Shown piece by piece: positions 3,194-59,330 of a stretch of DNA of 64,000 nucleotides. Position numbers and translations under genes: made by a program. A model generated the notes under the pieces. It saw only the letters and a list, made by a program, of their open reading frames with translations, did not search any database and was not told the origin of the DNA. Location of the stretch: NCBI GenBank assembly GCA_017935065.1, contig JAGBIF010000031.1:302-64301 (forward strand). The letters are read 5' to 3'. This stretch comes from Clostridia bacterium. GTDB taxonomy: Bacteria; Bacillota; Clostridia; Oscillospirales; CAG-272. Position 1 is the first letter of the stretch; each line of letters opens with the position of its first letter.

Positions 3194-4201
3194 TTATTTT
3201 CTGTATTCATCAAGCACCCTTCCAAGAAGCTCGGGGTTGTCTGTCATTATACAGTCACAGCCAAGCTCTATAAGCTCTCTCATAGTAGCCTCGTCGTTTA
3301 TAGTCCAGTACTGCACCGCAATATTACGCCTGTGCGCGCGCCTTATGAAGGTTCCTCTCGCAAGATTGAGAGTAATGTCCACGTCATAATCGGTGGGTAT
3401 CTGCAGGCAGGCAAAGTCGCCGCCGTCAAAGAGATTGACACAAAGAAGCTGGGTTACGATAAACTTGGCCGCCGTGCCCGTAGGCGCGCCTCGGTAGAGG
3501 TCGGGGTAATTCGCTTTCAGCTCTGCCTCAATCTCGTCGTGGAAGGTGCCGACTACTATTCGGTCACGGTAGGCGGGGAATTCCCCAAGCACCTCGTTAA
3601 GAAGCCTTGCCGCCTCGTAGCCGCGCTCACCCTCATCCTTTATCTCAACTATAAAGAGAAGCTCGGGGTGGCTCTCATAAAACTCCGAAAAAAGCTCGTC
3701 AACCGTCGCGATGGCAAGCCCCAGCTCGGCAGGATCTTCGGCATCCCTGTATATCCTCTCGCCATCCCTTTCAAAGTAAAAGCCGAAGTTATAGCTCTTA
3801 AGCTCGGCAAGCGTCATATCGCGTATATAGTGTCTTTTGGACTTGTCCTTGATAAGCTCCTTCATATCCTCATACGGGATATCCCCGTTTACATTACAGG
3901 TCTCGTCAATATACGCATCGTGGTTGTAAACGAGGTGTCCGTCCTTGGTAAGATACAGGTCGCTCTCGATTATATCCACATGATAGGTCATAACCGCCTC
4001 GCGGAAGGCGAGCAGGGTATTCTCGGGATTGCACTCGCCGCCGCCTCTGTGCGCGGCAATCATAGGAAGCTCACCGTCACCCACTACGAAGGGATTGTTC
4101 TCAACATTCTTCCTCGGCGGTATAACATTGATTAAAAGCATAAATACTGCTATGACTGCCAGCACTATTGCCGTGATTTTTAAGCCTCTTTGTTTTTTCA
4201 T
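3194..4201 (-). CDS. Membrane-anchored glycerophosphodiester phosphodiesterase (GDPD family)
   Basis: N-terminal TM helix, then the AAHRGGGECNPENTLLAFREAV GDPD signature. I chose the start at 4201 (MKKQRGL) because an AAGAGGTG Shine-Dalgarno sequence precedes it and this removes the overlap with the upstream gene. The track start is 4234. Confidence 0.8.
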   Translation of the reverse strand: MKKQRGLKITAIVLAVIAVFMLLINVIPPRKNVENNPFVVGDGELPMIAAHRGGGECNPENTLLAFREAVMTYHVDIIESDLYLTKDGHLVYNHDAYIDETCNVNGDIPYEDMKELIKDKSKRHYIRDMTLAELKSYNFGFYFERDGERIYRDAEDPAELGLAIATVDELFSEFYESHPELLFIVEIKDEGERGYEAARLLNEVLGEFPAYRDRIVVGTFHDEIEAELKANYPDLYRGAPTGTAAKFIVTQLLCVNLFDGGDFACLQIPTDYDVDITLNLARGTFIRRAHRRNIAVQYWTINDEATMRELIELGCDCIMTDNPELLGRVLDEYRK

Positions 4202-6895: not shown

Positions 6896-7561
6896 TCACC
6901 AAATAAAAGGTATCAATCGGTATTTTACCCTTGTCTTGTATTCGCTGTAGCCGACAAGCCCCTCGGTAAGCACTCTTTCCTCGTTTATGATACGCACCGC
7001 GATTATGATAGGGTAGAGAAGAAAGGGTATCAGCCCGTACAGCGAGCCGAGAATGATCGGCATCGGCAAAAACATAAGAAGCGTCGCAAGATACATAGGG
7101 TGCCTGACGGTGCCGTATAGCCCCGTGTCAATTATTTTCTGCTCTGCCTGCACCTCAACGGTGCGCGAAAGATAGGCGTTCTCACGCATGACCTCGCCGT
7201 ACAAGCAATAGCCGATAAGGAATAGCACCGATGCGAGTATCACCGCAGGCAAGGGCACCTCGGACCACCCAAATCTGAAGTCAAGCGCCGAGAGTGTGAA
7301 GCCCGAGAGAAAGACCGCCCCCGAGAGGGCAACGACACCGCGCTGTGTCCTCTCGCGCTCACCGCCCGACAGGCGCTTCTCAAGAAGCGTCGGCGCCTTG
7401 ACGAAAAGCACCGCCCCAAGCAGTAGCATAGGCACAAACAAAAGCCCCATAAACAGCCACCCATAAGGGTAATCAAGCGTCCCCGCAGGCAAAAACAAAA
7501 GCACTCCCACAAGCACAACACCCAAAAGATATTTACATAAAGCACTGAAAAGAAGCTTCAT
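6896..7561 (-). CDS. Isoprenylcysteine carboxyl / phospholipid methyltransferase (ICMT/PEMT) family membrane protein
   Basis: 221 aa and multi-TM. The C-terminal motif GLYGTVRHPMYLATLLMF...INEERVL...YSEYKTRVKYRLIPFIW is typical of the family. Its start codon overlaps the upstream stop (ATGA). Confidence 0.75.
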   Translation of the reverse strand: MKLLFSALCKYLLGVVLVGVLLFLPAGTLDYPYGWLFMGLLFVPMLLLGAVLFVKAPTLLEKRLSGGERERTQRGVVALSGAVFLSGFTLSALDFRFGWSEVPLPAVILASVLFLIGYCLYGEVMRENAYLSRTVEVQAEQKIIDTGLYGTVRHPMYLATLLMFLPMPIILGSLYGLIPFLLYPIIIAVRIINEERVLTEGLVGYSEYKTRVKYRLIPFIW

Positions 7562-8070
7562 ACGGTTTCCTCACTTTTATTCTTTTTAGGAATGCTAGCG
7601 TCGTCTATAATTTCCATCCAACCGCGCACAACCTTGCACACCTCGTTGATATCCGCGTTTTTCTCAATAAAAAACACCGCAAGCAACGCCTCAACGGCGG
7701 TTGCTATAAATTTGTGTGAGTCACCTTTATAATCGTAACTGTGCGGAATGTTTTTATCATTCACGTCATACTTGATAAAATCAATCAGTCCGTAATGCCT
7801 CGCAATATGCTCGACAAGAGTCTTGTCGGTTTCATAATCCTTCTTTTCGTCGGTGATTCTTTCACTTCCTTTTTCATAAAGAATTTTGCAAAGAGCGAGC
7901 TTCAGCACCGCATCACCGTATGTGGAAAGCGAGGAGTTCGTTTCGTTATCATTGATTTTATGATCAATATTTTTATAGGATTTATCGGTTAATGCGCGGA
8001 TAAACATACTCTCATCGCGCTGACAATTTCCGTGCAAATATTCATAAAACGCATCGTTTTCAAGGCACAT
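7558..8070 (-). CDS. RNase III-fold protein, partly degenerate (Mini-III-like size)
   Basis: 170 aa. STYGDAVLKLALCKILY resembles the RNase III signature (E..LGDAVL), and HKFIATAVEALLAVFFIE resembles the second catalytic helix (ADAFEA.IGAIYLD). Several acidic positions appear to be replaced. Confidence 0.45.
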   Translation of the reverse strand: MCLENDAFYEYLHGNCQRDESMFIRALTDKSYKNIDHKINDNETNSSLSTYGDAVLKLALCKILYEKGSERITDEKKDYETDKTLVEHIARHYGLIDFIKYDVNDKNIPHSYDYKGDSHKFIATAVEALLAVFFIEKNADINEVCKVVRGWMEIIDDASIPKKNKSEETV

Positions 8071-9322: not shown

Positions 9323-10348
9323 TCACTTTTTCTCGGTCTTTACCCCGATTTTCTCAAGGCTACTTAAAATCATAACCTTGTTTTCGTATGAGATTATCTC
9401 ATTCAGACTTATGTGGCTGAACTTTTTGAGATACATCTCAATGCCCCTGTCAAATTCCGACTCATCAAGCCTTACTCTGAGGATTTTCTTTCTGTAGTCA
9501 ATGGCACAGTCCACCTCGGTCTTTACATCCTCGGATGAGGTAGAGTTTTTACTGCAAAGAAGTATTACCGCGGAGGCATGCTCAAGCTTGTCGGCAATCA
9601 CATTTTTCCAGTTGTCACCGACAGGAATGCCCGCGTCATACCATACGCGCACACCGTGAAACTGCAAAAAGGCAAGGAATTCACCCGCCACCGTTCTGTC
9701 AAGGTGAGAATAGCTCATAAATACATAGTTTTCACTGCCCTGATAGGGGGCCTCTACATAGGCAGAGTCAAGAAACCTCTTTTGCCTTTCCTTTGATTTT
9801 TCAATAAGGACATCAAGCTGTGTCCTTATCGCTTCAAAGTTGAAATTAGAGCTTTCACCGCCGTAAATCATAATATAGTCGAACAGCGCTCGGTTTTTGA
9901 CAATAACATCCGCTACGGTGTCACCCATAGCAAGGCGGGGCTGAGCCTCGGCATCAGAAAGCCCCTTTGCCCGTATAAGCTCAAGCTGAGCGCTTTTGTC
10001 TATGTATACACCCACGATAGGAACGGCATCACCGTAGCCTGCTTGAATGTGGTGCAAAAACTCAATGTTATCGCTCGTCATACACAAAATAGCGTTCTCG
10101 TTTCCGTAAATGGCGTCAAAAATATCCGCCTTGTTAAAGCCCGCGTAGCCGTAATTCGTGCGGTACTTGAAGTCACAGGAATCAAGCCTTTCCCTGTCGC
10201 TGAGCTTTCTTTCGGTAAAGTAGGATTTCACAGGCGTGTCCTTGTCCTCAAGCACCACCTTTTCAATCACGCGAAACCCGCGCGACATCATATACCGCCT
10301 CGTCTCGTCCCCCACCGAAAGTGTAAGACCGTAAAAAACCATTAGCAT
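9323..10348 (-). CDS. TIR-domain protein with an unassigned ~200-aa N-terminal domain
   Basis: 341 aa. The C-terminal TIR pattern is YVFMSYSHLDRTVAGEFLAFLQFHGVRVWYDAGIPVGDNWKNVIADKLEHASAVILLCSKNSTSSEDVKTEVDCAI. A GGGAGGA Shine-Dalgarno sequence lies 8 nt upstream of the ATG. Confidence 0.8.
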   Translation of the reverse strand: MLMVFYGLTLSVGDETRRYMMSRGFRVIEKVVLEDKDTPVKSYFTERKLSDRERLDSCDFKYRTNYGYAGFNKADIFDAIYGNENAILCMTSDNIEFLHHIQAGYGDAVPIVGVYIDKSAQLELIRAKGLSDAEAQPRLAMGDTVADVIVKNRALFDYIMIYGGESSNFNFEAIRTQLDVLIEKSKERQKRFLDSAYVEAPYQGSENYVFMSYSHLDRTVAGEFLAFLQFHGVRVWYDAGIPVGDNWKNVIADKLEHASAVILLCSKNSTSSEDVKTEVDCAIDYRKKILRVRLDESEFDRGIEMYLKKFSHISLNEIISYENKVMILSSLEKIGVKTEKK

Positions 10349-10402
10349 AGTGTTGTCCTCCCTGTCTTTGTTAATTTAAGTCCCCCAAAAGCGCCCCCGC
10401 CC

Positions 10403-10679
10403 CTACTCGCCATCCTTCGCGGTGGTGATGGAGGCGATGAGTTTTCTACGAATAGCACCGCATTTGTTAGAAAGCATTTTATATGTACTTTCGTCTATTG
10501 AGCCGACCTTGAAAAGAATTTCAAGCCAATAGTCGGTTTCATAGCACTCCTTGAGAGCGATTTCAAGTTTATTTATAAAGTCTGCCGTGCTTTGAGCATA
10601 TTTAGCTCAATCTCCTTCTTCTTCGATATGTTATACCGTACTGCTGTAAAACGAACTTTTGAGTTTCACTCGAAATCAT
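10403..10679 (-). pseudogene. Decayed four-helix-bundle protein gene (TIGR02436 / former 23S rRNA IVS protein family; Avd-like fold)
   Basis: Manual translation of the minus strand gives ...AKYAQSTADFINKLEIALKECYETDYWLEILFKVGSIDESTYKMLSNKCGAIRRKLIASITTAKDGE*, which matches the C-terminal half of the family. The N-terminal part (MISSETQKFVLQQYGI...) is in another frame and is interrupted by stops. Confidence 0.5.
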
Positions 10680-10696
10680 TATTTGTCCCTGCTTAA

Positions 10697-10859
10697 AAAT
10701 GATGTTGCGGCAAGCCGCAAATGATGTTATGCTCTGCATAAATGATGTTGGCTTCGCCAAATGATGTAGGTTTGCCGACCTTTCCGTTTTCGCGTAGCGA
10801 AACATCATTCGCGAAGCGACATCGTTGCCGAAGGCACATCATTTTGCCGTCAGGCAAAC
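10697..10859. repeat. Mini-hairpin array with constant word AATGATGT; orientation flips mid-array to ACATCATT
   Basis: AATGATGT occurs at 10698, 10720, 10741 and 10760, each followed by a different 11-14 nt hairpin (TGCGGCAAGCCGCA, TATGCTCTGCATA, TGGCTTCGCCA, AGGTTTGCCGACCT). After that come CGCGTAGCG-AACATCATT-CGCGAAGCG-ACATCGT-TGCCGAAGGCA-CATCATTT-TGCCGTCAGGCA. The array starts directly after the rlmD stop. Confidence 0.8.
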
Positions 10860-12239
10860 CTAATTCGAGTCTCGTCGTGTGAGACACACGACGGACTCGA
10901 CATGCCCCGTCAGGGCAAACATATCCCACCCCTCGGCTTTCTCTGTCGTATATCCATAGTCAAAAAACGCCTTCACATCTCTTGCCAGCGTTTGCGGGTT
11001 GCAGGAAATGTAGACTATGCGCTTGGGAGAGATTTCTGATACGAATTTTATAAGCTCACCGTCACAGCCTGCACGCGGGGGGTCGAGGACTACTACCGTT
11101 GGCGAAATTTTCCTGCCAAGCTTGGCCTCGGCACTCGCGAGAAGTCCGCGTGTGTCGGTGGCGTCGCCTACGAAGAAGTGCGCGTTTTCTATACCGTTAA
11201 TACGCGCGTTTTCCTCAGCGCACCTGATAGCGTCGGGGATTATCTCAATGCCAATAACCTCGCCCGCATCTCTTGCCATCGAAAGACCTATTGAGCCTGT
11301 CCCGCAAAAGAGGTCGAGAAGCGTGTCCTCTCGCGTGAGCGAGGCAAGCTCGCGCGCTCTGGCATATATAGCATCCGCCACATCGTGGTTGACCTGATAG
11401 AAGGATGGCGCGGTAATCTTAAGCCTCACACCGCCGAGGGTGTCAAGGATATAATCATCCCCAAAGAGCCTCTGCCACCTCTGCCCGAGAATTACGTTGG
11501 TGTCGGCCTGATTTATGTTCAGCATAATGCCCGATACGTAAGGGTGCGCGCGCGATATCCTCTCACACAGAGCATCCGCGTGAGGAAGAGTATCCGAGTT
11601 TATTACAAGCGTTAAGAGAATTTTACCGCTCTCGTGCGAGCGCCTCATATAAATATGGCGGATAATACCCCCACCGCTTTTTTCATCGTACGCGGGGATA
11701 GAGTATTCGTAAAAGAGCTCGCGCAGTGTCGTCAGCACCGCGTGAAAATCGGGGTGCGACAGCGGACAGTCTGACGCCTCGGTGACGTTGTGCGACTTGG
11801 GCGCGAAAAAGCCGATAACATACTCACCGTCCTTGGTTTGCCTTACAGGGTACTGTGCCTTGTTTCGGTAGCCAAGCTCGCTTGGCGAGGGATTAACGGG
11901 CGGAACCGTGACGTCGCAAAGACCAGCCTTCACAAAGGCGTTCCTTATATCGTCGCGCTTGAAGTTGAGCTCATACTCGTAAGGCACGTTTTTATACGCG
12001 CACGAGCGACAGCGGGTGTTAGAGCATCTCGCCTCGGTGCGCATAGGGGAGGGAGTGATTATTCTCTCTAGCCTTGCGACACAGTAGCTTGAGGTAGCCT
12101 TTATTATCCTCGCGCTGACGGTATCCTCGGGGACGGCATCCTGTACGAATACTACCATACCGCAGGACTTGCCGACACCGAAGCCAAGGTTAGTCAGATC
12201 TTCAATTTTCAGAGTTATAATATCGTTCTTCTTTGGCAT
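10860..12239 (-). CDS. rlmD: 23S rRNA (uracil-C5)-methyltransferase, RlmD/RumA family (TRAM + Fe-S + SAM MTase)
   Basis: 459 aa. It has an N-terminal TRAM-like start (DIITLKIEDLTNLGFGVGK), the Cys cluster CSNTRCRSCAYK, and the SAM motif LLDLFCGTGSIG ... VVLDPPRAGC. Confidence 0.85.
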   Translation of the reverse strand: MPKKNDIITLKIEDLTNLGFGVGKSCGMVVFVQDAVPEDTVSARIIKATSSYCVARLERIITPSPMRTEARCSNTRCRSCAYKNVPYEYELNFKRDDIRNAFVKAGLCDVTVPPVNPSPSELGYRNKAQYPVRQTKDGEYVIGFFAPKSHNVTEASDCPLSHPDFHAVLTTLRELFYEYSIPAYDEKSGGGIIRHIYMRRSHESGKILLTLVINSDTLPHADALCERISRAHPYVSGIMLNINQADTNVILGQRWQRLFGDDYILDTLGGVRLKITAPSFYQVNHDVADAIYARARELASLTREDTLLDLFCGTGSIGLSMARDAGEVIGIEIIPDAIRCAEENARINGIENAHFFVGDATDTRGLLASAEAKLGRKISPTVVVLDPPRAGCDGELIKFVSEISPKRIVYISCNPQTLARDVKAFFDYGYTTEKAEGWDMFALTGHVESVVCLTRRDSN

Positions 12240-12251
12240 AGGATACCTTTT

Positions 12252-13103
12252 TTAGATGAAATCGTTCTTGAATTTGTTTCTGTATTCCTTGGGTGTCATA
12301 CCGAATTGCGCCTTGAAGGTCTTGGTAAAATAGGATGCGTCGGTAAAGCCCGTATCGTCGGCAATATCCGCAATAGCGCGGTCGGTGCATTCAAGCAGTC
12401 TCATAGCGCACTTGATGCGGTAGCTGATAACATACTGATGAAGCGTTATGCCCTTGCGGTCCTTAAGCATCTTGCTGATGTAGAAGGGGTGGTAGCCGAA
12501 AATCGCGCCAAGCTCGGTATTGGAGATTTCATCGTGGACGTTGTCGCGTATGTAGCTGTCAAGGTTTTCTACCATAGAGGCGGGAAGGGCGTTTTTATCG
12601 GAATGCTCGGCTATTTTGAGCATAATAAGCTTCAGATTTGCCGATATCTCGGCAAGATAGCTACCCTCTGCCGAGGTGAAAATATTGTTAAGCTTAATAA
12701 AGCTGTCGCGCATAGCCTCAACGTCCTCAAGTAAAATAGGCTTGTCAAAGGGCGCTGTGTCCTCGCTCGCTCGGCAAAGGGTGCTGTCATATTCCGAGAC
12801 AGGCGAGGGCGCGGGGCAGGGGATATGCGAGAATTTGTCGGTAAGGTCAAAGGCTATCACCACCGCGCGGAAATACTTTGCGCGAAGCGAATACTCACAT
12901 CCTGCGGGAATATATAGAAGCATACCTGGGCCAAGCTTAGCCTTGGATTTTCCCCCGAGGGTATATGTAAGCTCGCCCGAGATAAGGTAAATCAGCCTTG
13001 CGTCATAGGAGATGCAGGGCTCGGTGCGGTTAATTCTCTCGTATTGAGAAACACTGTGAATATCGGGATTAAGATAAGCAAAATTCATAAAAACACACCC
13101 CAA
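12252..13103 (-). CDS. AraC family transcriptional regulator (cupin sensor + HTH)
   Basis: 283 aa. The C-terminus IADIADDTGFTDASYFTKTFKAQFGMTPKEYR is the AraC HTH signature. Confidence 0.85.
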   Translation of the reverse strand: MGCVFMNFAYLNPDIHSVSQYERINRTEPCISYDARLIYLISGELTYTLGGKSKAKLGPGMLLYIPAGCEYSLRAKYFRAVVIAFDLTDKFSHIPCPAPSPVSEYDSTLCRASEDTAPFDKPILLEDVEAMRDSFIKLNNIFTSAEGSYLAEISANLKLIMLKIAEHSDKNALPASMVENLDSYIRDNVHDEISNTELGAIFGYHPFYISKMLKDRKGITLHQYVISYRIKCAMRLLECTDRAIADIADDTGFTDASYFTKTFKAQFGMTPKEYRNKFKNDFI

Positions 13104-13208
13104 AATATTTTTGCGTGAAATTTTAAAAGTTTTATAATATATATTGTAGCACCTTTTGTGCTTAAAATCAACAAATTATTCAAATTTTGATTTTTTTTAA
13201 AAAAAGGG

Positions 13209-13237
13209 TTGACAAAGCAAAAATAATATGCTAGAAT
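13209..13237 (+). promoter_or_regulatory. Sigma-A type promoter for tRNA-Glu
   Basis: TTGACA (13209-13214), a 17-nt spacer ending in TGc, then TAGAAT (13232-13237), about 20 nt upstream of the tRNA 5' end. Confidence 0.65.
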
Positions 13238-13256
13238 GTCTAGGCGTGATAAGCAA

Positions 13257-13331
13257 GGCTCGTTGGTCAAGCGGCTAAGACACGGCCCTCTCAAGGCTGA
13301 AACATGGGTTCGATTCCCGTACGAGTCACCA
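13257..13331 (+). tRNA. tRNA-Glu (anticodon CUC), CCA encoded
   Basis: Hand-folded cloverleaf. The acceptor is GGCTCGT/ACGAGTC, the D-arm is GTCAAGCGGCTAAGAC, and the anticodon stem is CGGCC/GGCTG with loop CTCTCAA. The T-arm is ATGGG-TTCGATT-CCCGT, with discriminator A plus CCA. It closely resembles the Firmicute tRNA-Glu scaffold. Confidence 0.9.
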
Positions 13332-13337
13332 AAGAAG

Positions 13338-13367
13338 AAACCACCCATTTCGGGTGGTTTTTTCTTT
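13338..13367 (+). terminator. Intrinsic terminator after tRNA-Glu
   Basis: AAACCACCC-ATTTC-GGGTGGTTT followed by TTTCTTT. Confidence 0.8.
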
Positions 13368-13494
13368 GGTACCTCGTACGGCTAGACACGCACCCACTCG
13401 GGGCGTAAAATGCCACGAATTGGGTTCGTGTCCACATCCGCGCTGTTTCTCTGTGAGAAACCTTGCCAAGCGCGGATGATTCCCGTACGAGTCA
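13368..13494 (+). repeat. tRNA-Glu-derived structured element, copy 1
   Basis: It shares CGGCTA-GACACG and GATTCCCGTACGAGTCA with the tRNA. It folds as a closing helix (13373-13381 with 13483-13491) around two long hairpins (13385-13432 and 13437-13476). Confidence 0.6.
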
Positions 13495-13522
13495 GACACC
13501 ACAAAAGATGGTGTCTTTTTTT
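13495..13522 (+). terminator. Intrinsic terminator after element copy 1
   Basis: GACACCA-CAAAAGA-TGGTGTC followed by TTTTTTT. Confidence 0.75.
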
Positions 13523-13528
13523 CGTTCT

Positions 13529-13649
13529 GGTACCTCGTACGGCTAGACACGCACCCACTCGGGGCGCAAAGCGCCACGAATTGGGTTCGTGTCCACAGGC
13601 ACGCCGTCTCTGTGCGAGAGACCTTGCCAGGCGCGGATGATTCCCGTAC
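13529..13649 (+). repeat. tRNA-Glu-derived structured element, copy 2
   Basis: It lies 161 bp downstream of copy 1. The first ~37 nt and the central helix are identical. The differences fall as paired compensatory changes in three helices. Confidence 0.6.
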
Positions 13650-13676
13650 TTCGGACGCCAATAGGTGTGTCCGAAA

Positions 13677-13780
13677 ATGAAGCACACTCGAGGCGGGGTG
13701 TGCTTCGCTTCATACGAGCGTAGCGAGTGCTTCATAGTTGAATAGCAACTGCTTCATATTGACAAGGTCAATGCTTCATT
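13677..13780. repeat. Mini-hairpin array with constant word GCTTCAT
   Basis: GCTTCAT occurs at 13707, 13729, 13751 and 13773, and its complement ATGAAGC at 13677. These are separated by hairpins: GAAGCACAC...GTGTGCTTC, AGTTGAATAGCAACT and ATTGACAAGGTCAAT. Confidence 0.75.
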
Positions 13781-13812
13781 TTACCACCGTTCTTCCTCTT
13801 GCGCATTTTCTC

Positions 13813-13841
13813 TTGCAATTTGTTTCATTATATGCTATAAT
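13813..13841 (+). promoter_or_regulatory. Sigma-A type promoter
   Basis: TTGCAA, a 17-nt spacer ending in TGc, then TATAAT, 35 nt upstream of the 13876 ATG. Confidence 0.55.
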
Positions 13842-13875
13842 ACCACAGGAAAATATTTTCACGAGGTACTGAAAA

Positions 13876-14238
13876 ATGAAATTTATCGGGTTTTGGTCAA
13901 AGCAGATGATCGTCGCGGAGTTTGACGAGATGCTTGCCTGCCGTCATTATTACCGTGACGGGGAATACTGTGAGGAGGGCTTCTGGGTAGTAAGAGCCAG
14001 CCTTGGCAGGGGCGCTAATGTGCGCGAGTATTACCTCTGCCCTGTCGATAAGGACAGCAAGGACGGCTACCGCCCCTTCCGTGACTGTGACGAGGCAAAC
14101 CTCTTTATTGAAAGGGCGCTTAAGCTCGGTGTTGATAATATCGACCTTCGCTCGCATAACGTCTGCTGTGCCTTTATGGAGGATACCTACGCCAAGGTAA
14201 GCCTGCTTAATAAGAGCGAGTTTTCGGGCGCGGAATAA
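13876..14238 (+). CDS. Hypothetical protein (120 aa, Cys-rich, cytoplasmic)
   Basis: The ORF has its own promoter and an AGGT-type ribosome-binding site. I recognise no motif. Confidence 0.5.
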   Translation: MKFIGFWSKQMIVAEFDEMLACRHYYRDGEYCEEGFWVVRASLGRGANVREYYLCPVDKDSKDGYRPFRDCDEANLFIERALKLGVDNIDLRSHNVCCAFMEDTYAKVSLLNKSEFSGAE

Positions 14239-20241: not shown

Positions 20242-20352
20242 GGCGGGGGAAATGTCATCCTGAGCCAACAAGCAATTGCTTGTTGCCCTGAGCGAAGCCG
20301 AAGGGGGTGTCGAACCCGTAGGGCGACGCAAAGCGTCGGGATCTCTCCCGCC
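20242..20352. repeat. ~110-nt long-hairpin repeat, copy 1 (termini GGCGGGGGAAATGTCATCCTGAGC ... CGTCGGGATCTCTCCCGCC)
   Basis: The termini are mutually complementary: ATCCTGA pairs with TCGGGAT, and GGCGGG with CCCGCC. The interior holds the small hairpins CAACAAGCAATTGCTTGTTG and CGACGCAAAGCGTCG. Confidence 0.65.
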
Positions 20353-20399
20353 GTGTACGCCTCGCACACAGTACGATGGTGTGCCCGTGGCGCTTGCAA

Positions 20400-20473
20400 T
20401 GAAATCCGCTTTGCGGATGAAGTCCACTTCGTGGATGAAGTCGCTTCGCGATGAAGTCCGACTTTGTCGGGTT
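20400..20473. repeat. Mini-hairpin array with constant word ATGAAGT; 74-nt block identical to 28196-28269
   Basis: The sequence is TGAAAT-CCGCTTTGCGG-ATGAAGT-CCACTTCGTGG-ATGAAGT-CGCTTCGCG-ATGAAGT-CCGACTTTGTCGG. A base-by-base comparison with 28196-28269 shows no mismatch. Confidence 0.85.
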
Positions 20474-20480
20474 GATATGG

Positions 20481-20567
20481 GAGCGGGAATGTCATCCTGA
20501 GCGGAGGGCTATGCCCGAAGTCGAACGGCGCAGCCGCGACGCTGTGCGTCGGGATCTCTTCCGCTTC
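20481..20567. repeat. Long-hairpin repeat, copy 2 (GAGCGGGAATGTCATCCTGAGC ... CGTCGGGATCTCTTCCGCTTC)
   Basis: It has the same termini and the same internal GTCGAAC and CGACGC-nnn-GCGTCG landmarks as copy 1, but a shorter and different interior. Confidence 0.65.
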
Positions 20568-20585
20568 GCACGCATTTCCCATATT

Positions 20586-21095
20586 AAAGGAGGATGCTCT
20601 TCCGCCGTACCTCATCCTTGCAAAGCTTAAGAGTGTCGCATAGTGATTTTTATATTCCTTTCCCGAGGTCGCAAGATAGATTGACAGCTCGTCAATTCTG
20701 TCGACATAGTCCTCGGGAAATTTTTCCCTGAAGGCATTATACTCGGTGTCGGAAAGAAAAACATTGTCAAAGGCACCGAAGGGCTCTTTTTTGCCGAGAG
20801 GCGAGGGAGGTGCTGAGCTTGGCATCTGTATTTCCTCATCCCTATCAACCGCGGTGTCATACACCGCATCATTTAATGAAAAAGAATTTTCAAAATCGCG
20901 CTCTTCACGAGAGAAAGAGAGATTTTCACCGTTATCGTTTTCGGTAACGGTTTCTTCTTTTTTATTCTTCTCTCTTTCTTCTCGAAGAGAAGTATGTTCT
21001 TCTTTGTTCTTTTCTGTTCTATTATTTATATTTATTAAGGGTAATGATTTTGTAATGCTCAAATCATTACATGTAATGCTCGGTGTAATGCTCAA
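20586..21095 (-). pseudogene. Remnant of a phage/plasmid replisome-organiser (DnaD-like C-terminal) gene
   Basis: The segment FDNVFLSDTEYNAFREKFPEDYVDRIDELSIYLATSGKEYKNHYATLLSFARM matches a C-terminal module common in Firmicute phage replication proteins. The N-terminus lies in a repeat array. The reading frame has lost its native stop and runs on through repeats into the antisense of paralog B. Confidence 0.35.
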
Positions 21096-21185
21096 ATCTT
21101 TCCCTGTAATGCTATCTGTAACGGCTTCATCATTACGAGCGAAGCGAATAACATCACTTTTGCGTCAGCAAAAACATCACTAACA
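21041..21185. repeat. Mini-hairpin / word arrays (GTAATGCT x4, then CATCA-type words)
   Basis: GTAATGCT occurs at 21053, 21073, 21085 and 21106. The inverted repeat GTAATGATTT/AAATCATTAC lies at 21041-21070. This is followed by CATCATTA-CGAGCGAAGCGA-ATAACATCAC-TTTTGCGTCAGCAAAA-ACATCAC. Confidence 0.7.
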
Positions 21186-21232: not shown

Positions 21233-21268
21233 GCTTGTATAAGGTTTTTTGGGGGGAATTTACTAATT

Positions 21269-21350
21269 GCGAGCGAAGCTCGCGTCGATATATTTGCTTT
21301 GTGTACAAAGCAAATTCGATATGCGCTTCGCGCGTGATATGATTGACACA
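21269..21350. repeat. Mini-hairpin array with constant word CGATAT
   Basis: The sequence is GCGAGCGAAGCTCGC-GTCGATATA-TTTGCTTTGTGTACAAAGCAAA-TTCGATAT-GCGCTTCGCGC-GTGATAT-GATTGACACA. It is homologous to 28314-28380. Confidence 0.75.
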
Positions 21351-21377
21351 TTCCCCCTCATAAAAAACTCACGGCTA

Positions 21378-28173: not shown

Positions 28174-28385
28174 CGGGCGATGCAAAGCTTCGCAGTGAAA
28201 TCCGCTTTGCGGATGAAGTCCACTTCGTGGATGAAGTCGCTTCGCGATGAAGTCCGACTTTGTCGGGTTAGATATGCCTCGCGTAGCGAGGCGCGATATA
28301 TTTGCATTGCAAGCAAAGCAAATTCGATATGTGCTTCGCACTCGATATATTGCTTCGCAATTCGATATGTTGACACCTCGGTGCC
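28174..28385. repeat. Composite mini-hairpin array (ATGAAGT block, then CGATAT block) directly after the sigG stop
   Basis: 28196-28269 is identical to 20400-20473. It is followed by GATAT-GCCTCGCGTAGCGAGGC-GCGATATAT-TTGCATTGCAA-...-TTCGATAT-GTGCTTCGCAC-TCGATATA-TTGCTTCGCAA-TTCGATAT-GTTGACACC. Confidence 0.8.
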
Positions 28386-28554
28386 AACGAGAAGGGTTGC
28401 ACCGATATCATGCCGAAATATTTTTTCTTTTTTTGCAATAAATCCGAGGGTTGGATTATTAATTTAATAATTATATACTGCCACGCGTTTGTTACGCTAT
28501 CTTTTTCAAAATGTGCCAAAAGCCCCGAAGTTTTTGCCAATTACCTTATTTTCC

Positions 28555-59201: not shown

Positions 59202-59330
59202 ACGCCAAAACGTTCTTCGGAACAAACGGGAGCTTCAAATCCCGAAAACCACGGCCTCGTGGTCAAGTTGGCGAGATCGCGCTTTAGCGAAAATTCAAAC
59301 CCGTCAACCAATAACCTAATGGAGGAAAAA

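Follow-up and report, generated by a model that had tools for sequence, protein, structure and literature searches.

Mirrored arrays of constant words and perfect mini-hairpins in gut Clostridia: a possible non-coding arm of PF05635-linked mobile cassettes at rumA and tRNA 3' ends

The window analysed here is a 64-kb stretch of DNA (C4:302-64301) from an uncultured gut Clostridia bacterium whose assembly comprises 1.74 Mb in 47 contigs and is 75% complete. Direct reading of the window shows, beside rumA at 10697-10859, a mirrored array in which a constant word alternates with perfect mini-hairpins. The word AATGATGT occurs four times on the plus strand, starting at 10698, 10720, 10741 and 10760, and behind each copy stands a perfect hairpin of a different sequence (tgcggcaagccgca, tatgctctgcata, tggcttcgcca and aggt-ttgccg-acct). 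Next comes the mirrored half, which reads, in order, tcgcgtagcga, ACATCATT (10802), cgcgaagcg, ACATCGT, tgccgaaggca, ACATCATT (10836) and ttgccgtcaggcaa. Six of the eight copies of AATGATGT in the window are packed into 146 bp, against an expectation of 1.8 copies for the whole 64 kb; this clustering and the direct reading both uphold the inverting word-and-hairpin array that an initial annotation had described. The element is composed as follows.

10698..10767, plus strand: left (ATG-type) arm, four copies of AATGATGT
10706-10719, 10728-10740 and 10749-10759, plus strand: perfect hairpins between the words of the left arm, with loops AA, TCT and TTC
10768..10801, plus strand: dyad centre, made up of hairpin aggt-ttgccg-acct (10768-10781), linker ttccgttt and hairpin tcgcgtagcga (10790-10800)
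10802..10859, plus strand: right (CAT-type) arm, with words ACATCATT (10802-10809), ACATCGT (10819-10825) and ACATCATT (10836-10843)
within 10802..10859, plus strand: right-arm hairpins cgcgaagcg, tgccgaaggca and ttgccgtcaggcaa, with loops GAA, GAA and GTCA

Reading from the left, tcgcgtagcga is the first hairpin of the array with a GNA loop, and homologues in other families keep the 'gtttgcc' core of the dyad centre. A predicted fold of the single strand pairs the words of the two arms with each other and leaves the hairpins as side branches, with a fold z-score of -5.2 as DNA and -4.0 as RNA. We rejected a clustered regularly interspaced short palindromic repeat (CRISPR) array as an explanation. 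CRISPR arrays have repeats of ~23-50 nt, unique non-palindromic spacers and cas genes, whereas the repeats here are 7-9 nt long and the spacers are palindromes of 9-17 nt; no search for cas genes was made.

The focal array is one member of a large family. A scan of the genome for 6-mers recurring at least three times at a spacing of 13-30 nt, with dinucleotide shuffles as control, yielded 759 chains compared with ~40 in the shuffles. Chains with at least two hairpin spacers numbered 167, compared with ~1, and merged into 83 arrays. All of the words fit a loose one-strand consensus, RTGAWRT, under which fall AATGATGT, ATGAAGT, GTGAAAT, TTGAAATG, TCGATAT, GTGATAT, AATGAGGT and GTTATGA. Across genomes, the pattern RTGAWRT-N9-18, required three times, matches 130 of 251 genomes of the same order and 76 of 139 genera, while the reversed pattern, used as control, gives almost no matches. 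Matches per genome range from 0 to about 70 in the order, and true arrays occur patchily, in only a few genomes, in the rest of the phylum. The arrays thus belong to one superfamily of intergenic repeats found across an order of gut Clostridia, and the possibility raised in the initial annotation, that they are unique to the window or to this assembly, falls away. One genome from another family of the phylum (G511) holds 123 matches to the three-word pattern, far above any genome of the focal order sampled; its words are ATGAAAT and GTGAAAT and its hairpins are of the type c-TTC-g, which would make it well suited as a model of the element.

The units of these arrays follow common rules. Among 337 distinct hairpins, stems are 4-7 bp long and contain 1752 Watson-Crick pairs, beside which only 10 G.T and 5 A.C positions occur. 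On the RTGAWRT strand, 144 loops have T..C as their end bases and 5 have G..A; the loops on that strand are c-TTC-g (the commonest, 46), c-TGC-g (22), c-TAC-g (16), c-TTT-g and c-TNNC-g, so that the opposite strand reads c-GNA-g or c-GNNA-g. The CAT strand consequently carries the signature of DNA mini-hairpins, a C:G closing pair with a G...A loop on one strand; c-GNA-g and c-GNNA-g are the rule for extraordinarily stable, nuclease-resistant DNA mini-hairpins (PMC13037366). A bias towards TTC/GAA loops, GC-rich stems of 4-7 bp and a word spacing of 16-24 nt are confirmed as properties that the arrays share. The mirror arrangement has a polarity: of 77 ATG-type arrays, 24 have copies of the reverse-complement word on their 3' side and 1 has them on its 5' side (24:1). 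Relative to flanking genes, array strand shows no significant bias (32:20 for downstream arrays, 18:16 for upstream ones), which led us to reject a fixed-strand element of the 3' untranslated region (UTR). The initial annotation had placed most arrays just downstream of stop codons; this is partly so, but tandem and divergent intergenic spacers also hold arrays.

Additionally, we considered whether the TGA within the word makes the array a three-frame stop module. Unit lengths favour multiples of 3, and full frame coverage occurs in 16 of 88 and 14 of 52 arrays, no more often than by chance, so this idea was dropped.

Conservation of the fold was assessed in a full-length alignment of ten AATGATGT-type foldbacks from eight genomes and several families, in which single hairpins are recognisably homologous across the copies. 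In this alignment, 93.6% of cells are paired. Compensatory changes occur in 15 of 45 pairs compared with 7.5 +/- 1.5 in shuffles, none of 500 shuffles reaches 15, and slid-register controls collapse, so that hairpin potential is retained between homologous copies, the lack of which the initial annotation had named as refuting. The words of the two arms covary as well, ATGATGT with ACATCAT and GTGATGT with ACATCAC. The maintained palindromy, loop type and word complementarity across families point to constraint. An origin of the word as a target-site duplication and of the hairpin as the insert was rejected, since homologous hairpins at the same positions across families argue for descent and against repeated new insertions; we found no test that separates this idea from recombination between words.

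The arrays are linked to genes for PF05635 four-helix-bundle proteins. An intact PF05635 gene lies directly 3' of four of the seven homologous AATGATGT foldbacks that were fetched from other families, and an array lies no more than 330 nt upstream of 25 out of 40 PF05635 genes, a sample drawn from more than 20 array-rich genomes. The recurring layout is a tRNA gene, an intrinsic terminator, the ATG-type arm, the centre, the CAT-type arm, an extended -10 promoter (TGnTATAAT), a ribosome-binding site and the gene. Word type goes with protein subfamily, and in a second PF05635 subfamily simple arms of heptamer repeats flank the gene on either side. PF05635 is present in 27 of 28 array-rich genomes (1-10 copies) compared with 5 of 28 array-free genomes (Fisher p = 1e-9), a contrast that persists within families. 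The four-helix-bundle protein matches PDB 2RLD at E = 2e-28. To our knowledge, PF05635 '23S rRNA intervening sequence (IVS) proteins' are widespread and unexplained outside diversity-generating retroelements.

The same PF05635 family includes the S23p open reading frames of the 23S rRNA IVSs of Leptospira and Coxiella. Like those elements, the arrays have complementary, gene-linked arms able to zip into a long stem, and in the heptamer-arm subfamily these flank the gene. In contrast to them, the cassettes here lie behind rumA and tRNA genes and not in 23S rRNA (helix 25 or 45), and the focal type has both arms upstream of the gene, with mini-hairpin side branches. RNase III excises rRNA intervening sequences carrying the same four-helix-bundle gene; a small RNase III-like gene lies at 7558-8070 on the minus strand, in the accessory island behind rumA. 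In another species (L162, G015), a stretch 3' of rumA translates to a protein that, judged by eye, looks similar to this RNase III-like one. Separately, a figure legend in one report lists '23S rRNA IVP' among proteins newly tied to CRISPR arrays or adaptation modules (PMC10910872).

At the focal locus, the array lies between the end of rumA and a remnant of such a gene.

10860..10901, minus strand: last 13 codons and stop of rumA (...HVESVVCLTRRDSN*), holding a 14-bp perfect hairpin (10866-10900)
10612..10697, minus strand: conserved 'leader' (promoter- or 5'-UTR-like, with a ribosome-binding site), between the array and the four-helix-bundle remnant
10403..10606, minus strand: 5'-truncated four-helix-bundle gene (PF05635 / 23S rRNA IVS protein, Avd-like), of which residues about 52-117 are left

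The PF05635 match (10436-10603, 47 bits) is the only one in the genome and directly adjoins the array. A 282-bp segment spanning the leader, the array and the last rumA codons (10621-10901) is 94% identical in another genome, G023, whose RumA is only 55% identical; the rumA tail at 10860-10901 therefore moves together with the element. The copy in G023 lies 3.6 kb away from the rumA gene of that genome, among different genes. At least 11 of 20 congeneric species carry a foldback whose start lies at or within the rumA stop codon, usually with a PF05635 gene behind it, and the words at this site vary by species (GCGATAT, TGAATTG, AGTGAAGTT, CGTGATAT); in cassette-free species, rumA ends in ...VVCLTRK* followed by a terminator. 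G023 carries two tandem cassettes, the second of which starts with an old rumA-tail fragment, and a related strain has both flanks but lacks the focal array at >= 90% identity. Accretion of cassettes is thus site-specific, behind rumA and tRNA genes. The accessory island in the window contains TIR, HNH, RNase III-like and methyltransferase genes and no integrase. Y1 transposase (PF01797) has 0 matches in this 75%-complete genome, where positive controls did match, and tyrosine recombinase (PF00589) is represented by a single gene on another contig; a resident integrase at the island was accordingly rejected.

The neighbouring segments have features of their own. Past VVCLTR, the final rumA codons make up a perfect hairpin of 10-16 bp, both at 10860-10901 and at the rumA 3' ends in L155-L174. 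About 40 nt of this tail are 85-93% identical across families whose RumA proteins are ~50% identical; in cassette-bearing species the tail is apparently supplied by the cassette, with the stop codon at times inside the first word. The leader proper, ~70 nt on the minus strand (10612-10690), reads GGACAAAT..TTCGAG..GTTTTACAGCAGT..GTATAACATATCGAAG plus the ribosome-binding site. It recurs in L106 (G061:C29; 360-430 and 2540-2612) and L093 (G023; 776-850 and 4047-4108) as well as in L163, L171 and L172, and is followed by various cassette genes, namely four-helix-bundle genes, GIY-YIG genes, a gene with an SGGKDS motif and genes for membrane proteins. The SGGKDS motif, read from the translation, resembles that of PP-loop ATPases. 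Depth over the leader in gut metagenomes is 115-357, compared with 4-27 for its flanks, and no Rfam family matched it; it may be a portable promoter, a 5' UTR or a cassette junction.

We read the focal feature, at roughly even confidence, as a dyad-symmetric foldback of words and mini-hairpins that acts at the DNA level and is the non-coding arm of a mobile cassette, now decayed. A full cassette would consist of the 3' tail of the target gene with its hairpin, the foldback array, a promoter, the PF05635 (Avd-like) gene and variable cargo, and such cassettes pile up behind rumA and tRNA genes; in the window, the four-helix-bundle gene lacks its 5' half. Gene-less copies make up most of the arrays of the genome, and would relate to the gene as repetitive extragenic palindrome (REP) and REPIN sequences relate to the REP-associated tyrosine transposase (RAYT). 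The element probably acts as DNA and not as a dedicated RNA because of its wobble-free palindromy, its DNA-stabilising loops, the lack of significant strand bias and its position between terminator and promoter. The words may be repeated recognition sites, most likely for the four-helix-bundle protein, and the perfect palindromes with c-GNA-g loops could extrude as very stable DNA mini-hairpins, words and hairpins together providing a cis-acting platform for promoter control, maintenance or mobility of the cassette. It is plausible that the array is a protein-binding platform with the PF05635 four-helix-bundle protein as candidate partner.

Several observations weigh against this interpretation. 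This genome has ~83 arrays and no intact PF05635 gene, a point that is weakened by the 75% completeness of the assembly and that indicates that arrays can persist without the gene. Arrays exceed PF05635 genes about 10:1 everywhere, and the match between word type and protein subfamily could arise from linkage alone. We know of no catalytic or sequence-specific DNA-binding activity of the four-helix-bundle protein, and no recombinase or transposase that would move the cassettes was found, the genome having one tyrosine recombinase and no Y1 transposase. The focal element is also present in metatranscriptome contigs and here lies within the rumA 3' UTR, and the discoverers of Gut-1, a related repeat, rated it an RNA (Weinberg et al. 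2010, PMC2864571).

The window contains further arrays of this kind.

13677..13780, plus strand: family member, an array with four copies of GCTTCAT and hairpins with GTA, AATAG and AAG loops
20397..20476, plus strand: ATGAAAT/ATGAAGT array, a sub-threshold Gut-1 match (34.2 bits)
28266..28392, plus strand: (T)CGATAT word-hairpin module of ~130 nt, with a second copy at 21262-21352

The initial annotation had assigned the same architecture to these places, and closer reading agrees for the GCTTCAT array (13677-13780), the ATGAAGT arrays at 20400-20473 and 28196-28269, the CGATAT arrays at 21269-21350 and 28266-28385 and the CATCAC pairs at ~21150 and ~27205. The two ATGAAGT arrays are near-identical twins, the second extending over 28193-28269, and TCGATAT-word arrays number 22 in the genome. 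Two other assignments did not hold: the spacers of the GTAATGCT repeats at 21041-21120 are not hairpins, and 59205-59290 is the rpsJ-rplC spacer, which has hairpins but no constant word. The GTAATGCT repeats (four copies at 21041-21120, with degenerate copies on both sides) differ in kind from the hairpin arrays and lie at the 5' end of a minus-strand open frame resembling a fragment of DnaD or a phage replication protein. The GCTTCAT array is placed behind a copy of the tRNA-Glu 3' end, and a promoter (TTGCAA-17-TATAAT) and a 120-aa gene follow it. The tRNA-Glu copy, on the 5' side within 13600-13900, is partial (gattcccgtac); the promoter on the 3' side is a strong one, and the 120-aa gene is unannotated and cysteine-rich.

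Other repeated modules accompany the arrays. A multi-copy intergenic module, gaaatgtcatcctgagcggagggc...cgtcgggatctc, occurs in the window at 20481-20567 and 20242-20352 and elsewhere in the genome on contigs C11 and C32, often joined end-to-end with word-hairpin modules. To the right of the TCGATAT module lies a repeated module of ~130 nt, aggcaaggctctcactataacaaaag...gcgataccgaaaattcggtcgggct, with at least 6 copies (C5:26560-, C11, C33). A handful of module types, combined as mosaics, make up the intergenic spacers of this genome.

The arrays bear on Gut-1 (RF01706), an orphan candidate non-coding RNA from gut metagenome sequence, whose description names neither a host nor a gene context nor a mirror partner (Weinberg et al. 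2010, PMC2864571). A covariance search of the genome with Gut-1 gave 57 matches at E <= 1. Four arrays, all of the GTGAAAT type, score 64-69 bits, above the 50-bit gathering threshold; the two ATGAAGT arrays of the window fall below it at 34.2 and 33.5 bits, and the focal array has no match even at E <= 10. A scan of the whole window at Rfam gathering thresholds returned only tRNA-Glu, and an E-value scan of 10300-14000 added only noise. Where both arms of one element match Gut-1, they do so on opposite strands and convergently. Gut-1 thus corresponds to single arms of GTGAAAT-type arrays within a wider superfamily, of which the focal copy is a new word-variant. The two share short-hairpin arrays separated by a constant word (GUGAAAU in the Gut-1 seed) and an origin in gut metagenomes, but Gut-1 corresponds to one arm, whereas the element described here is a two-armed DNA element with many other word types. 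The arrays, which the initial annotation could not match to REP/BIME, BOX, RUP, ERIC or Correia elements, are therefore not wholly unnamed: there is no signature of REP/RAYT (no Y1 transposase), but the GTGAAAT arrays exceed the Gut-1 threshold. On Gut-1, the literature search turned up the 2010 paper and, apart from it, only a benchmarking study on another subject in which the family is used; nothing connected PF05635 with arrays.

This relationship raises the alternative that the arrays are structured RNAs, either non-coding RNAs of the Gut-1 type or RNA elements in 3' UTRs or with an insulator role, which would stabilise transcripts, terminate them or titrate an RNA-binding protein; we consider this alternative unlikely. 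Some arrays do exceed the Gut-1 threshold, the discoverers of that motif judged it an RNA, and the stems covary. Four metatranscriptome runs contain short contigs that match 10720-10904 at 97-99% identity but none of the neighbouring rumA body; the contigs lack strand information, are shallow in coverage and could stem in part from carried-over DNA or from copies in other hosts. Followed by TTTTT (running into 10612..10697), the last unit of the array on the minus strand resembles an intrinsic terminator for rumA; an intrinsic-terminator scan flagged two minus-strand units, 10720-10705 and 10760-10748, and the uninterrupted TTTTT follows only the outermost. Orientation relative to genes (32:20 and 18:16), the two convergent Gut-1 matches per element on opposite strands and the near absence of G.U pairs all argue against an RNA. 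So do the full copies, which sit between a terminator and a promoter with no space for a promoter of their own, and the triloops, which are of the DNA-stabilising c-GNA-g type and not UNCG or GNRA tetraloops. For the same reasons of strand, pairing and position, the RNA 3'-end stabiliser suggested in the initial annotation gained little support. UUCG tetraloops were also rejected as an argument for RNA, since the register of the palindrome gives a C:G-closed triloop and not c(UUCG)g. Hairpin-seeding repair or transposition, a further origin suggested at that stage, gained no direct support.

A still lower probability goes to the foldback being a recombination site, a single-stranded DNA or cruciform structure similar to attC or to attP arms, at which a recombinase acting in trans would insert cassettes at rumA and tRNA 3' ends, with the words as arm-type sites. 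The occupation of one rumA position by cassettes with differing words, seen in at least 11 of 20 species, would fit such a site, as would the tandem accretion with a duplicated rumA tail in G023, the type-B cassettes placed after tRNA genes and the position of the array directly beside the duplicated core. Structure is also kept while sequence varies, as in integron attC. However, no integrase was found in or near the islands, the whole genome holds a single tyrosine recombinase and lacks a Y1 transposase, the crossover seems to have taken place in the coding tail of rumA and not in the array, and many arrays occupy places without signs of a cassette. The likeness to integrons extends to tandem stacking of cassettes at one site, the newest apparently next to the anchor gene, and to a structured palindromic element in each cassette whose fold rather than sequence is conserved. 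In contrast to integrons, there is no IntI integrase here and there are no R/L boxes (no GTTRRRY was seen on reading the sequence), the element consists of 150-200 bp of word-hairpin units, and the cassettes carry their own promoter.

We regard as less probable again that the arrays are purely selfish repeats, similar to miniature inverted-repeat transposable elements or REPs, spread as single-stranded DNA by an unknown enzyme and expanded by unequal recombination between words, the link to the gene being co-hitchhiking. Several families are multi-copy and near-identical, as with the 22 TCGATAT arrays, and 14 strict three-word copies were aligned; unit number differs between paralogues, contigs break at arrays, the distribution among relatives is patchy and arrays outnumber genes ~10:1, all as such repeats might behave. 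Yet no candidate transposase was found in the genome, gene-bearing copies hold the array at a fixed position relative to terminator and promoter, and palindromy, loop type and word complementarity are strictly kept across families. REP and REPIN families have one conserved palindrome and a fixed 5' tetranucleotide, GTAG or CGTC. The arrays resemble REPs, bacterial interspersed mosaic elements and REPINs in being short intergenic palindromes tagged by a constant word, often as inverted pairs, and resemble REP/REPIN-RAYT systems in having many gene-less copies alongside a few that flank a signature gene, patchily among relatives. They differ in that the signature gene encodes a four-helix bundle of ~115-120 aa and not a Y1/HUH transposase, hairpins vary from unit to unit, the word varies between arrays and arrays have 3-10 units. 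An assignment to REP/RAYT was rejected, given that the genome has no Y1 transposase, that the hairpins within an array all differ and that the words are 7-9 nt long. Finally, chance, simple tandem duplication or assembly artefact, for which only the shortness of the words speaks, is highly improbable, as shuffle controls reject chance, spacers within one array differ in sequence, and the focal-type element is found in independent assemblies and sequencing runs.

For the reading of the focal feature as the DNA-acting arm of a decayed cassette, the nearest parallels at the level of single hairpins are the DNA mini-hairpins d(GCGNAGC) and d(GCGNNAGC) at the phage G4 and ssiA priming sites and the hairpin promoters of phage N4, whose cores follow the same c-GNA-g / c-GNNA-g rule and where small hairpins formed by DNA are recognised by proteins (PMC13037366). 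Those are single hairpins with a known enzyme partner, whereas here arrays with constant words have a partner that is only a candidate. If this reading is true, this would be a rare instance in which a chromosome carries mini-hairpins in arrays, able to extrude and with a protein dedicated to them.

More speculatively, and with low confidence, the arrays and PF05635 proteins may together form an unrecognised mobile system. In such a system, a non-enzymatic bundle protein would recognise extruded hairpins and words and direct or stabilise integron-like stacking of cassettes at tRNA and rumA 3' ends without a dedicated integrase, the gene-less arrays being REPIN-like non-autonomous copies and the stacked cargo consisting of accessory and defence gene cassettes. 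If true, this would explain how intervening sequences bearing open reading frames enter 23S rRNA genes.

The arrays also matter in practice, as they break short-read assemblies and mark the borders of variable accessory and defence islands, and repeat finders may take those beside PF05635 genes for CRISPR arrays. Since 2010 Gut-1 has remained an orphan, and tying it to PF05635 gives both a testable context, newly defined as terminator, foldback, promoter and four-helix-bundle gene, with rumA and tRNA 3' ends as insertion sites and an order of gut Clostridia as the host clade.

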